Shown here: positions 2,768 to 12,818 of the stretch, piece by piece
Position numbering within the stretch: position 1 is the first letter of the stretch
Layout: every line of letters begins with the position of its first letter
Assembly (NCBI GenBank): GCA_048938025.1
Contig: JBHLMP010000002.1
Location: 62,088-126,087 of the forward strand
Source: Promethearchaeota archaeon
GTDB lineage: Archaea; Asgardarchaeota; Lokiarchaeia; Sigyniarchaeales; SOKP01
Direction of reading: 5' to 3'
Length of the DNA: 64,000 nucleotides
The notes under the pieces: generated by a model
What the model was told of the DNA's origin: nothing
Databases searched by the model: none
The model's input: only the letters and a program-made list of their open reading frames with translations
Translations under genes and position numbers: made by a program

Positions 2768-3887
2768 TTATATGTTTTAGATCTTCAAGAAAATCTTCTT
2801 TAATATCAGCGCCATGACCGGGAAAATCTGGTATGATTATTTTTCCGTTATTCTTTACATCATATTCTATTCCGCCTACGATTGGGTCTTCCTTATGCAT
2901 GAGAGCTGCATCTAAATCTACAAATACAATGTTGGGACATGCAGATACTAAATGAGCTCCAGCAGTTAAACCGAGGCGAGATTCATTGAAACATCCAATC
3001 ATACATTTTATTCCACAACTTAGAGCTATAGCGTTTATCTTTAAAGCAGTAGATATTCCTCCAGATTTGCCTAATTTTATATTCAAATAATCACATGCAC
3101 CCATCGAAGCCAGTTTAAATGCGTCGTGATGATCGAATATGGATTCATCAGCACAAATTGGAGCTAAACCTGTTTTTCTTAATCGTTTCATATTTTCATA
3201 ATCCCAGAATGGCAAAGGTTGTTCTGCATATTCTAGATTATACGGTTCTATAGCTTTTAAAACCTGCACTGCTGTAGGATAATCCCATCCTTGGTTAGCA
3301 TCGGTTCGGATTGATATATCTTCGCTAATCTCTTTCCTAATTGTTTTAACAAGGTTAATATCCAAATCTTTATTCAAACCAACCTTCAATTTCAATGTAG
3401 AGAACCCCATATTAATTACCTCTTTAACCTTATCTATGGCTATTTCTAAATTTTCTTGGATTCCTATTGAGTAGTCAGTATTAATAATCCTTTTTTCACC
3501 ACCTAATACCCTATAAAGAGGTAATCCTGTAGCTTTGCCAATTATATCATAAAGAGCTAAATTAAAGGCTGATTTTATTTGGGTTTGTCTATTAATAGCT
3601 AGATCAATATCTCTCATCCGAGCTTCTATCGCTAACGGATCTTTGCCTTTAATAAATTTAGCGATATGAATACCTGCTTCATAAGCACTTGCTTGGGTAT
3701 CACCAGTTATTCGCGGAGAAGGACATGCCTCTCCGACTCCATAAATATCATTATCGGTATTAATTCGAACTAAGATGTTATCTGCTTCATAGACTGTACC
3801 TAATGAGATTTTAAATGGAAATTTTAATGGAATATTGAGTTTAAAGATTTCAATATCACTTATTTTGAGTAAATTATATGGATTCAT
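2760..3887 (-). CDS. Dipeptide epimerase (L-Ala-D/L-Glu epimerase), enolase superfamily MLE subgroup
   Basis: KLKVG, DANQGW, EQP, ADES, NIKLGK and DLD motifs. Confidence 0.85.
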   Translation of the reverse strand: MNPYNLLKISDIEIFKLNIPLKFPFKISLGTVYEADNILVRINTDNDIYGVGEACPSPRITGDTQASAYEAGIHIAKFIKGKDPLAIEARMRDIDLAINRQTQIKSAFNLALYDIIGKATGLPLYRVLGGEKRIINTDYSIGIQENLEIAIDKVKEVINMGFSTLKLKVGLNKDLDINLVKTIRKEISEDISIRTDANQGWDYPTAVQVLKAIEPYNLEYAEQPLPFWDYENMKRLRKTGLAPICADESIFDHHDAFKLASMGACDYLNIKLGKSGGISTALKINAIALSCGIKCMIGCFNESRLGLTAGAHLVSACPNIVFVDLDAALMHKEDPIVGGIEYDVKNNGKIIIPDFPGHGADIKEDFLEDLKHITI

Positions 3888-9465: not shown

Positions 9466-10554
9466 TTATTTTTGATTTTTCAAATACTCATTCATTTCCA
9501 CAAAACTACTCGTTCTTATTAATGCAGCTTTAAGAAATTGGAAACCAATATCATATGTCGATCCATCACCTCCGATATGAATAATCCAAGGAATTTCATG
9601 ATCATATAGCCCTTTAGCTTTCATAATCTTTTTCGCAGTGGAGATAGCTTCAGCGACAGTAGCACCAGATTCAAATAAGTGGTGTACCCAAGGAACATTC
9701 CATGAGGTCACGTTATCTTTTGAAGTTGAGACCTCTGAACAACTAGTGTTATTCACATAAATTATGTTAGTATTAGCAACCGCAGTCGCAGCTGTTGCCA
9801 TTTGATTTAATACCATTCCGGCACCACAACCAGGACATAAACCATGACCTGGTTGTAGATGAGTTTGAGGCTGTAATTTCTTCCGATTAATTCTATAAAC
9901 TTCAACAGGTTTCTCAGCACCGAAATTTTCTATTAATTTTTTCAGTTTATTATTTCTTTGTTCTGTTAGATAAATAATTTCATCAATCTCTTTTTCCATA
10001 AATTTAGGTTTAAATAGATGCCTAAATTTGCCCATCGATTTAAGATACTCTACAAATTTTTCTTTATCAATATCTAATCCGCGATAATAGGTAAAAACAG
10101 GGACGCCATCTTCTACTCTGACTGTATAAAGCGGCCAATATCCACAATCAGTTGCCAATTTTGAGATTTTGAGAGTATCAGCAGCACCATGTCTCCACCC
10201 TCTCATACAATCCGAATATGCTTGAATGAAAGCAGATCCATCCGATTTAAGAGCGTCTGCTACCTTTCCCATAAAATCATTAGGATATGCTGGATTTACA
10301 GTAGCTAAGAAGAGCTTTATTGTCCCATAGAAAGCAAATGGGGTAACTAAATCTTGCTTGACACCTATTTTACCTGGGATCTTTTCTCCCGCAGGACCAG
10401 TCGTAGTGGAAGCATAAGGTGGTGTAGCTCCACTTTCTTGAATTCCTGTATTCATAAAAGCTTCATTATCGTAGTTGAAAAATAGAACATTAGATTTTTC
10501 ATTTCGGACTAAAATATCCTCAAAATTAATTACATTCCTCTCTGGTTTTGACAT
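9466..10554 (-). CDS. porB: Pyruvate/2-ketoisovalerate:ferredoxin oxidoreductase beta subunit, circularly permuted
   Basis: All PorB motifs are present (YDNEAFMNTGIQ, GHGLCPGCG, TSC, GGDGSTYDIG), but the normally C-terminal half comes first. Confidence 0.9.
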   Translation of the reverse strand: MSKPERNVINFEDILVRNEKSNVLFFNYDNEAFMNTGIQESGATPPYASTTTGPAGEKIPGKIGVKQDLVTPFAFYGTIKLFLATVNPAYPNDFMGKVADALKSDGSAFIQAYSDCMRGWRHGAADTLKISKLATDCGYWPLYTVRVEDGVPVFTYYRGLDIDKEKFVEYLKSMGKFRHLFKPKFMEKEIDEIIYLTEQRNNKLKKLIENFGAEKPVEVYRINRKKLQPQTHLQPGHGLCPGCGAGMVLNQMATAATAVANTNIIYVNNTSCSEVSTSKDNVTSWNVPWVHHLFESGATVAEAISTAKKIMKAKGLYDHEIPWIIHIGGDGSTYDIGFQFLKAALIRTSSFVEMNEYLKNQK

Positions 10555-10558
10555 TTTA

Positions 10559-11785
10559 TTAATCCACCCCGTATATTTTTTCTTTAGTTTCTCTCACTCC
10601 TAGATAATGATATAGTTGTCCCTTCATGTCTGTAACAGCTTCCATTTTCTTTTTCGCTACATTAAACTCATCTCTCGTAACATCACGTCCACCTAAACCA
10701 ACTATAAAACTTCTAAATAAAGTGCCTAGTGGATATAACGCAGAGGCAACAGACATTGAAAATGGTGGTAGCATCCCATTTAACGAGTCGCTTTTTTCTA
10801 ATAGAATTAATTTTTCTATATTATGGTCTTCCACAATTTTTCGAAATTCTTCATATGGAAATGGTCGATATGCTCTTATTTTAATTAAACCGACATCCTT
10901 GTTTTTTGTCATCCAACTAATAATATTACCGCATACTGAGCCCATTGTACAAAAAGCAGTTTTTGAAGAGTTGTCTAAATTATAAGTTTCAATCAGATTA
11001 TAGGCTCTTCCCGTTTCGGCTTCGAACTTTTTGAAGACATCAACCATTTGACCTAAAACTGGTTGTTTTGCTTCTTCCAACTGTGCTCTTCCTTCCATAA
11101 AATAAGAAGGAGTAACAATACCACCCCATGTACCGGGTTTTGAAGGATCAATTGTATGTCTTGGCTTTTTAGGGGTCATTTTTTTGACTCTTTCATCTGG
11201 AATTAGTGTTAGTTTCTGTACTGAATGAGATATTATAAAGCCATCATGTACAAATATAGTTGGAAATAATGAGTCTTCTGAGATCATAACAGAAATGATT
11301 GCAGCATCATAGGTCTCTTGAACATTTTCAGATACAATTATATTCCAACCAAGTTCAGAATTCGTTTGAGTATATTCCCAAGAATTCCAAATAGATAAAT
11401 TCGGTGAATTAAAAGCCCGAGCAGAAATCATCATCGTTAAAGGCAATCTCCACCCTACAGCCATAGGAAGAGCTTCTGTCATCAATAAATAACCTTGACT
11501 TGCGGTAGCTGTAAAAGCTCTTGCTCCTGCTGCACAAGCAGCAGTTGAAAAACTTATTGCAGCTAATTCGGATTCTACATTTACAAATGCTGCTTTTAAT
11601 CTTCCGTTATGAACAACATCGGATAATCCTTCAACTGATTGGGTCTGAGGGGTGATAGGAAAGGCGCATATGACATCTGGATCAGTTTGAGTAACTCCCC
11701 CGGCAACTGCATAATTTCCAATCATAGTAGTTACTATAGGTTCCTTAATTTCCTTAAAAAATATCCTCATCGGTTCTATTGACAT
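10559..11785 (-). CDS. porA: Pyruvate/2-ketoisovalerate:ferredoxin oxidoreductase alpha subunit
   Basis: GNYAVA, FPITPQT, VESE, ARAFTATASQG, DGFIISH, GLGGRD. The ATG at 11785 has a GAGGTGA SD. Confidence 0.9.
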   Translation of the reverse strand: MSIEPMRIFFKEIKEPIVTTMIGNYAVAGGVTQTDPDVICAFPITPQTQSVEGLSDVVHNGRLKAAFVNVESELAAISFSTAACAAGARAFTATASQGYLLMTEALPMAVGWRLPLTMMISARAFNSPNLSIWNSWEYTQTNSELGWNIIVSENVQETYDAAIISVMISEDSLFPTIFVHDGFIISHSVQKLTLIPDERVKKMTPKKPRHTIDPSKPGTWGGIVTPSYFMEGRAQLEEAKQPVLGQMVDVFKKFEAETGRAYNLIETYNLDNSSKTAFCTMGSVCGNIISWMTKNKDVGLIKIRAYRPFPYEEFRKIVEDHNIEKLILLEKSDSLNGMLPPFSMSVASALYPLGTLFRSFIVGLGGRDVTRDEFNVAKKKMEAVTDMKGQLYHYLGVRETKEKIYGVD

Positions 11786-11799
11786 TTTTTTCACCTCAT

Positions 11800-12818
11800 C
11801 TATTCTGGAGCGGCACAAGCTGCTGGTCCTTGTTTTAATCGTTTGCTAATAGCTTCAACAGGACAGATTTCTAAACAATTTTGGCATGATTTACAATGCG
11901 ATTGATCAATACCTTTCATATGCCATAAACCATCCTCACCTTTTTCTCTAATAATAGCAAAATCAGGACAGATATACCAACATTGAGCACAATCAGTACA
12001 TTTTTCTTCATCCCAAATCATATCCCATTCACCCCATGAACCAGTATTTACTTGCTTGCTACCTATCTCTATAACATCTTCATCGCAATACCACACACCA
12101 GCTTTATCTACTTCCTTATACCCCGGTAATCCTGGAAAAACTTGTTGCCAAGAAACTTTTGTATCTTCAGCAAAATTAATTGTAGGAGCATTTGAAGTCT
12201 CATATATACAAGTTTCTTCATAAGCTTTTTTTATAGCTGCTACATTTTTACCAGCGATTTCACCTTTAAACCGACGCAGTATTGCATCAGCTAAAGCATC
12301 CATAGAGAAGATTGGAACCACATGAATAAGTGCTCCTAAAATTATTGTATTAGTTATATTTCTGCCAAGAATTTCCATTGCAATATTTAATGCATCAATC
12401 GTTGCGATATTTATATCTTTTCGACCAACAATATCTTGAATAGTCCTTTGATCCATGACAGTATTTACTATAAGCCATCCACCGGGAGCCAATCCTGCAG
12501 TAACATCTATTTCACCAAGAAGAGAGGGATCTAATACTGCGACTGCATGTGGAGCATAAACTTGCTCATTGCTTCTTACTAAATCATCATTTGCACTTAA
12601 ACGTACATAACTTTCAGTTGGAGATCCCATTCTTTCGGCTCCAAATAAGGGTTGACAAACACCATACCCGTAAAATGCTTCCACACACAGATTTGAGGCG
12701 GTCACTCCGCCTTGTCCTACGGGAGAGAGAGAAACTCTCAAATCTCTCCGCGGGCATGAAAGCGTAAATTTATAACATTCGATTTTAATATTTCTTTTAA
12801 TTGTTCTGGAGTTAACAT
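11800..12818 (-). CDS. porG: Fused POR gamma-delta subunit, interrupted by a 29-nt insertion (candidate intron); 329 aa if spliced
   Basis: Exon 1 (ATG 12818) reads MLTPEQLKEILKSNVINLRFHARG. Exon 2 reads GQGGVTASN...FGAERMG...NTIILGA, then NTGSW and two CxxCxxCxxxCP ferredoxin motifs (PorD). Confidence 0.85.
12717..12745 (-). other. 29-nt hairpin insertion, candidate BHB/BHL-type archaeal mRNA intron
   Basis: Breaks the frame with an in-frame TGA. Central helix GCGG/CCGU has 3-nt bulges AGA and AGG. Cutting after the second nt of each bulge gives CGC GGA GGA CAA (R-G-G-Q). Confidence 0.6.

Follow-up and report, generated by a model that had tools for sequence, protein, structure and literature searches.

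Why does the gene for the gamma-delta subunit of the pyruvate-oxidising enzyme POR (porGD) break off near its start and resume in another reading frame? The locus lies in a stretch of 64,000 nucleotides (nt), hereafter the window, from contig JBHLMP010000002.1 (positions 62,088 to 126,087) of a Promethearchaeota archaeon (Asgard, Lokiarchaeia type), represented by a metagenome-assembled genome (MAG) of 3.52 Mb in 88 contigs that is 96.7% complete. On the minus strand, ATG 12818 opens MLTPEQLKEILKSNVINLRFHARG (24 codons), followed by E, I and the stop codon TGA 12740-12738, and the remainder of the subunit (GQGGVTASNL...) is found in a different frame from 12717 to a stop at 11800. A first-pass annotation of this DNA had described the broken frame, with the rest of the subunit displaced by 29 nt, and had interpreted the insert as a bulge-helix-bulge (BHB) intron. 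The coordinates and translations agree with that description, and we consider it probable that the insert is a young BHB intron of the HBh' class in the pre-mRNA of the porGD-porA-porB operon, spliced in vivo.

Removal of 29 nt yields ...LRFHARGGQGGVTASN, which restores the RGGQGG motif and gives the same sequence as all orthologs. Excision of exactly 12745-12717, the segment released by cutting after the second base of each bulge as the annotation had proposed, produces an open reading frame (ORF) of 990 nt that reads HARGGQGG and has a single, terminal stop codon. The N-terminus of the spliced product follows a pattern identical to that of all orthologs, and the paralog with which the restored motif had been compared is present within the window at ~26421 on the minus strand (MNEKLKIRFSGRGGQG, containing IRFSGRGGQG). 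An AG repeat blurs the boundaries of the insert such that three registers result in one and the same spliced RNA, for which the predicted junction-spanning peptide is HARGGQGGVTASN. Gene callers would report a 313-aa ORF from TTG 12741 instead of the full porGD. As translation of the unspliced message halts after 26 codons, splicing would have to outpace translation or be coordinated with it.

Under the BHB rule used here, the central helix H joins positions i-5 to i-2 with j-5 to j-2, and the bulges span i-1 to i+1 and j-1 to j+1. GCGG 12751-12748 pairs with CCGU 12722-12719 at all four positions (one G-U), and the two strands are followed by the 3-nt bulges AGA and AGG, as previously noted for this locus. 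Two pairs form inside the bulges (G12744-C12723 and A12743-U12724) and lead into a GAGAG/CUCUC hairpin. Among the three equivalent registers only 12745-12717 has a 4/4 central helix, and this is the segment that a relaxed motif of the HBh' type had been predicted to excise. The insert is accordingly of class HBh' (H 4/4, bulges AGA and AGG, h' 2 bp, h 0 bp), and no exon-exon helix forms around it. Among random 29-nt segments of this genome, 2.3% show a full central and outer helix by chance if any of three registers may count; the rate is 0.8% for shuffled versions of the insert and 1.8% for the insert placed at other positions along the gene.

The annotation had suggested looking in this genome for other frameshifted genes with BHB inserts, and a comparison that ignores RNA structure recovered six further inserts in conserved genes, five of them with BHB-type geometry. 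We used tblastn to search 4864 stop-to-stop ORFs (>=70 aa) of a single-contig relative (G006, 2.8 of its 3.34 Mb used) against the whole genome (G000), with matches for 3318, and applied three structure-ignoring scans, based on adjacent split hits, local rescue of unaligned termini, and alignment gaps with a stop codon. The scans returned the porGD insert as a control together with six more inserts of 25-32 nt on six other contigs (Table 1), and no other genomic copy of any of the seven was found. In the register that restores the protein, four of the six have a canonical BHB, as does the porGD insert, with helices GGCU:AGCU (h' 6), GUGC:GCAU (h 5), AUGG:CCAU (h' 2) and GGCG:CGCU (h' 4); the GUGC:GCAU register yields Glu as in G006, not Lys. 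The acetyl-CoA synthetase insert is one pair short in the central helix (H 3/4, h 2, h' 4) and the CoA-transferase insert has relaxed geometry only. Bulges in these sister inserts are mostly AA/N or AG/N. The probability of at least four canonical motifs among six inserts is 4e-6 at a chance rate of 2.3%, and 4e-5 at 4%.

Two of the sister inserts can be followed across the genus. Of 54 genomes, 12 carry the insert in the JAB/MPN protein gene, all at one site, 39 are uninterrupted and three are unresolved or without an ortholog; the carriers comprise nine split orthologs and three with 21 to 30 additional nt and stops. Its length varies from 29 through 30 and 31 to 32 nt, while the central helix is 4/4 in all 12 and the outer helix has at least 3 bp in each, and excision gives HPGFKVMM in 11 genomes and HPDFKVMM in one. 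Changes in the exon are matched in the intron: with the Gly codon GGT the intron has AACU rather than AGCU (G014, G004), and with GAC it has AGUU (G001). In an alignment of the ten distinct sequences the central helix is 100% paired and two of its four pairs change on both sides (G-C to A-U and C-G to U-A). Pairing extends to 85.5% of cells of the full structure, compared with 18-55% when partners are slid, and double-change pairs number six versus 0-1 in the slid controls.

The aIF2-gamma gene, identified in 52 of the 54 genomes, is interrupted in six, at an identical codon in five other genomes and the one studied here. The inserts fall into a 29-nt family (G000, G043) and an in-frame 30-nt family (G001, G003, G054, G062). 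Members of the latter have A, A, C or U immediately ahead of the predicted 3' cut, such that reading through would place Lys, Lys, Gln or a stop at the P-loop lysine, and only the BHB cut gives the lysine codon AAG in all four. Compensatory change is seen in the JAB insert and partly in aIF2-gamma, but not in porGD. No common mechanism based on read-through, frameshifting or codon-matched hopping is compatible with the variable lengths, the in-frame stops and the junction within a codon. Their spread is patchy, G043 having the aIF2-gamma insert without the JAB insert and G016 the opposite, which suggests gains and losses.

A similar insert was found in another organism. A tblastn search of intact PorGD, PorA and PorB against all collected loci gave five split matches, two of which are the window itself and two of which (L165, L166) are deletion-frameshifts in porA. 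The fifth comes from a different Promethearchaeota MAG (L062, JAGXOA010000132.1, ~3775-3805), whose porB-like gene holds an independent hairpin insert of 31 nt between NYDNEAFMNTG and IQESG. In the register restoring NTGIQESG it has a 4/4 central helix (CUGG:CUAG), bulges AAA and AAU, and class HBh'.

The genome encodes the enzymes that such introns would need. Two PF01974 (EndA) matches above the cut-off lie in open frames of 208 and 201 aa, in the regions of C66:88427-88651 and C33:14707-14955, and there is one RtcB. Asgard archaea have an (alpha-beta)2 EndA with a broad-specificity L1 loop, according to the accessible text of PMC5829648, from which the EndA type is taken here. ARAGORN identifies only 32 tRNA genes, of which 18 contain introns, often in non-canonical places, and there are probably more tRNA genes that escape recognition because of multiple introns. 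The cbf5 gene has no interruption here: its two TruB_N stretches share a single open frame of 337 aa without stops.

The earlier overall interpretation as a BHB intron thus gains from the register of the porGD insert, the four canonical sister inserts with a fifth at 3/4, the conservation of the JAB and aIF2-gamma inserts, and the two EndA subunits with RtcB. We are slightly more confident that the inserts of this genome are, as a class, spliced BHB introns than we are for the porGD insert by itself; that cutting and ligation occur in vivo, and on the porGD transcript specifically, is what we infer from the pattern. In the proposed mechanism, GCGG of exon 1 would pair with CCGU near the 3' end of the insert, leaving the two 3-nt bulges AGA and AGG. 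The two-subunit EndA would cut past the second base of each bulge, and RtcB would ligate the exons to encode ...HARGGQGG... and probably circularise the 29-mer. We also think it likely that members of the genus have a turning-over set of 25-32-nt BHB mini-introns in protein genes, some old, shared across species and maintained by exon/intron covariation, and others gained after 8% DNA divergence. The protein genes of this genome would hold at least seven, one of them in the P-loop codon of the essential aIF2-gamma, with the porGD intron as a young member and the older ones shared within the genus.

Several observations weigh against a spliced intron in porGD. The motif is weak, having no exon-exon helix, an h' of only 2 bp and a G-U pair in H, and is the weakest of the canonical inserts. 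Contrary to the BHB fold assumed in the first-pass annotation, the 71 nt taken by themselves adopt, at minimum free energy, an extended hairpin that has a 1-nt bulge (-24.5 kcal/mol, z = -2.0), and the fold constrained to a BHB (-14.9 kcal/mol) is 9.6 kcal/mol less stable in isolation. The insert is a singleton with no covariation support of its own: where inserts with covarying helices had been envisaged at the same site in orthologs, none was found in 29 orthologous loci from 40 relatives, which all read R(F/I)H(A/G)RGGQG uninterrupted, nor in 151 further loci from genome and metagenome collections (158 less seven without an N-terminus, partly overlapping with the 29), and even the nearest loci (L038, L117), at 92.4% DNA identity, lack it. 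Since no POR ortholog carries the insert, support for its splicing comes by analogy with the sister inserts. POR also appears dispensable in the genus, as seven of 24 same-genus genomes are without a full ortholog (best E ~1e-12 to 1e-16, or a fragment) and other 2-oxoacid oxidoreductases are present, so a disabling insertion would be tolerable. A DNA contig from run X5 that covers the site extends only 13 letters past the far side of the insert and has 24 mismatches at positions not seen. RNA runs X15-X20 contain 4-8% of the sampled words. Finally, the codon changes that speak to selection on this gene (see below) amount to ten, a count of low power.

Absent from orthologs and without a second copy, the porGD insert could, taken alone, be a fresh lesion, and a recent disabling insertion is the alternative that survives best, if an unlikely one. 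It would hold that a 29-nt quasi-palindrome entered a dispensable POR gene, leaving a pseudogene or a truncated protein from TTG 12741 (MRVSLSPVGQGG...), and that the BHB shape is a coincidence. The restriction of the insert to this genome, where it has no other copy, the missing or fragmentary POR ortholog in seven of 24 genomes, the non-BHB minimum free energy fold and a GGAG 4 nt upstream of TTG 12741 are in its favour, and ordinary lesions do occur, as in the porA deletion-frameshifts of L165 and L166 and the 1-nt frameshifts on contigs C6 and C16. Against this, canonical geometry arises by chance in only ~2% of cases, and six more inserts of the same size class are present in the genome, five with BHB-type geometry. 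One of these is in the P-loop of aIF2-gamma, a single-copy gene (one match in G000) in which a lesion would be expected to be lethal. If translation restarted at TTG, the protein would be deprived of strand beta-1, and the invariant RGGQGG of one Gly. The relaxed selection that the annotation had associated with simple pseudogenisation is not apparent: private codon changes in porGD are seven synonymous to three non-synonymous (20:3 and 55:12 in relatives), and the insert is the only lesion in the operon, porA and porB being intact.

As to how the insert arose, a mobile repeat was rejected as there is no second genomic copy (blastn-short, best other match 14 nt), and a 25-mer of the insert has no exact match in metagenome contigs or in genome contigs. 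A template-switch origin was also set aside, the 3' end of the insert not being, by eye, a reverse complement of the pre-insertion flank.

That the 29 nt are absent from the DNA of the organism and were introduced by assembly or sequencing is very improbable. The annotation had called for confirmation of the insert in DNA, and this was obtained on one side: run X5, an independent run, provides a gapless 447-nt contig over 12704-13150 that bridges the junction of exon 1 with the insert, and the far side has the short overhang mentioned above. Depth in the bin 12666-12806 is 1.15 in X1, 3.13 in X3, 0 in X4 and 11.7 in X5, contigs end near the insert at 12706 (X3) and 12702 (X5), and filtered depth at the site is near zero in the best run. 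No 29-nt skip is listed in any of the four DNA runs X1, X3, X4 and X5, where cover is so thin that this is no evidence either way. A point in favour of an artefact is that the genome, a scaffolded MAG, has gaps of 100 N bordered by duplicated overlaps of 77 nt. An artefact would not, however, yield BHB geometry seven times on seven contigs, nor would it turn up again at the same codon in MAGs from other species and other studies.

Translational bypassing from take-off codon GGA 12749-12747 to landing codon GGA 12717-12715, with 29 nt skipped, is equally improbable. The gap holds a hairpin and has a GGA codon on either side, and a stop follows two codons past take-off, but the product would read HARGQGG, one Gly short of a motif invariant in ~180 orthologs, the sister inserts have no matching codons (the aIF2-gamma junction lies inside a Lys codon, GGA A/AG), and the covariation couples the 3' end of the insert with exon 1, which is the arrangement of a BHB and not of a take-off stem-loop.

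Bypassing is known from phage T4 gene 60 and the mitochondrial byps elements; it takes place at the ribosome, for which the take-off and landing codons have to match. These systems share with the porGD insert a structured segment of 27-55 nt within a coding sequence that is absent from the protein, and differ in that the sister inserts are without matched codons and covary as BHBs. Another parallel is HAC1/XBP1, in which a small frameshifting mRNA intron is removed without a spliceosome and the exons are joined by a tRNA ligase (RtcB in animals), the outcome deciding which protein is made. There, Ire1 cuts at paired stem-loops rather than a tRNA endonuclease at a BHB, and splicing is part of a regulated stress response, whereas nothing indicates regulation here.

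The closest precedent is the crenarchaeal cbf5 pre-mRNA intron, reportedly described by Watanabe et al. in 2002. It is likewise a short BHB or relaxed BHB intron in a protein gene, often frameshifting, at a catalytic or conserved motif, in hosts with a two-subunit broad-specificity EndA, and liable to misannotation as a frameshift or split gene. The inserts described here differ in their hosts (POR gamma-delta, aIF2-gamma, JAB/MPN, Fe-S, thioredoxin, CoA-transferase and acetyl-CoA synthetase genes, with cbf5 itself uninterrupted), in lineage (Asgard, not Thermoproteota), in number (at least seven per genome versus one) and in the evidence for very recent gain; splicing of cbf5 has been proven by experiment, while the present inserts are known from sequence alone. 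As far as the accessible text of Yokobori et al. (2009; PMC2738675) goes, cbf5 introns measure 16-44 bp and have BHB or relaxed BHB motifs, and cbf5 of Thermoproteota was the only confirmed case of enzymatic (EndA/RtcB) splicing of archaeal mRNA. The kind of intron is known from cbf5; new are the lineage and the host genes, how many there are per genome, and the evidence that gain was recent.

Non-canonical tRNA introns of Asgard archaea have been surveyed in a preprint (10.64898/2026.10.13.758758), the accessible text of which counts HBh' among the canonical classes and reports repeated independent gains, with about half of the gains at canonical boundaries versus 4-8% by chance. The inserts studied here resemble these introns, as presented there, in motif classes (hBHBh', hBH, HBh'), in the enzymes and in the canonical fraction, about half being comparable to our four of six against 2.3%, and 18 of the 32 tRNA genes of this genome have introns. 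They differ in that the substrate is mRNA, that the exon half of the motif codes for protein and is constrained accordingly, and that splicing must compete with coupled translation. The main text of the preprint contains the word "mRNA" 0 times and "protein-coding" once, for neighbouring genes. A search of full-text literature, with subscription journals and supplementary files outside its reach, returned no report of BHB introns in Asgard protein-coding genes. If true, several interrupted genes in one Asgard genome, both conserved and newly gained, would turn a curiosity into a system: close relatives of eukaryotes would routinely need pre-mRNA splicing by the tRNA-splicing machinery, and intron gain into coding sequence would be observable in progress in a prokaryote. 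This would bear on the origin of eukaryotes, in that protein genes with interruptions might have been tolerable to an archaeal host before there was a spliceosome, and would offer a case of intron gain open to direct testing. It would also affect annotation, as genes such as those for aIF2-gamma, acetyl-CoA synthetase and JAB would be called fragments or pseudogenes, with consequences for metabolic reconstruction and completeness estimates of Asgard MAGs.

Table 1. Features of the porGD locus (positions in the window) and the six sister inserts (contig and positions in the genome)
Feature	Position	Strand	Remarks
porGD exon 1	12746..12818	-	ATG 12818, 24 codons + first two junction bases; last base 12746 under the BHB rule
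Proposed BHB (HBh') intron, 29 nt	12717..12745	-	TGA 12740-12738 in exon-1 frame; shifts frame
porGD exon 2	11800..12716	-	GQGGVTASN..., POR gamma domain PF01558, two 4Fe-4S delta-type motifs, stop 11800
Central helix H, 5' strand GCGG (exon 1)	12748..12751	-	4/4 pairs with 12722-12719
Central helix H, 3' strand CCGU (predicted intron)	12719..12722	-	pairs with GCGG
5' bulge AGA	12745..12747	-	predicted cut 12746/12745; rule as in the accessible text of preprint 10.64898/2026.10.13.758758
3' bulge AGG	12716..12718	-	predicted cut 12717/12716
Internal helix h' (G12744-C12723, A12743-U12724) and hairpin GAGAG 12739-12735 / CUCUC in CU run 12731-12723	12723..12744	-	
porA, alpha subunit	10559..11818	-	intact, PF01855 + PF17147; downstream in operon
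porB-like beta subunit	9466..10554	-	intact, circularly permuted relative to solved PorB; last operon gene
JAB/MPN protein insert	C9:20655-20685	-	31 nt, site HSHPGFK/VMM
4Fe-4S protein insert	C4:12494-12522	+	29 nt, site CA/EGAL
aIF2-gamma insert	C39:14890-14918	+	29 nt, site GHVDHG/KTTL (P-loop)
Thioredoxin insert	C48:85756-85780	-	25 nt, site PLGE/RFG
Family-III CoA-transferase insert	C40:6939-6970	+	32 nt, site LDCSQ/FIS
Acetyl-CoA synthetase insert	C51:54249-54278	-	30 nt, in frame, with TAA, site DTYWQ/TETGG

The remaining candidates of the three scans were of other kinds. The 26 split rows of the adjacent-hit scan are mostly ordinary and not inserts, comprising genes fused in G006 and separate here (C87, and an hdrA/mvhD-like pair on C15), antisense or intergenic ORFs (C71, C67, C70, C55, C8), repeats (C72, C71), large in-frame additions (C36, C51, C48:61701-61963) and 1-nt frameshifts (C6, C16, C1, C5). 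Terminal rescue produced 415 alignments, from which ~19 rows with an offset of at least 4 were inspected, the remainder being low-complexity or multiples of three; rows on C56, C75, C33 and C7 look non-coding, and three cases of an extra 177 nt are scaffold gaps. The gap scan gave 78 rows, and the evaluation covered the three with a stop, among which only that on C51 falls within a gene. In the opposite direction, ORFs of the present genome against the first 1.2 Mb of G006 gave no inserts, the ten split rows all being intergenic or antisense. Genes on C49, C67 and C48 (reverse-strand indices ~17913, 72733 and 26244) contain scaffold gaps, runs of 100 N bordered by a duplicated overlap of 77 nt, which mimic 177-nt insertions in comparisons of this type.

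Some of these loci have features of their own. Single-base frameshifts relative to G006 orthologs at C6 ~23235 and C16 ~8415 may be sequencing errors, pseudogenes or programmed shifts. On C15, where the hdrA-like and mvhD-like parts are separate and those of G006 are fused, the mvhD-like gene (~31700, minus strand) reads AFLCLK-TGA-GYGGADMAG versus AFLCNWCSYIGADLAG in G006, where the TGA is a candidate codon for selenocysteine. In the 4Fe-4S protein insert on C4, the 20 nt at the 3' end are complementary at 19 of 20 positions to the rtcB coding strand (C68:33844-33863, the codons of VMIHTGS), a match with a blastn-short E of 0.011 as one of seven queries, which may be chance.

Within the POR operon, seven porGD orthologs (L079, L134, L136, L137, L143, L144 and L187) have a stop preceding the N-terminus (ILTEEE... 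or ILAEKQ...) and no ATG, GTG or TTG, raising the possibility that their first codon, ATT, serves as a non-canonical start. The porB-like gene (9466-10554, minus strand) is permuted: its residues 226-347 correspond to residues 3-115 of PorB (9bt4_C), including the Cys motif and GDG, and its residues 23-193 correspond to residues 119-282 of 9bt4_C, from NYDNEAYMNTG onwards. This permuted arrangement is kept in four relatives, one of them from another family.

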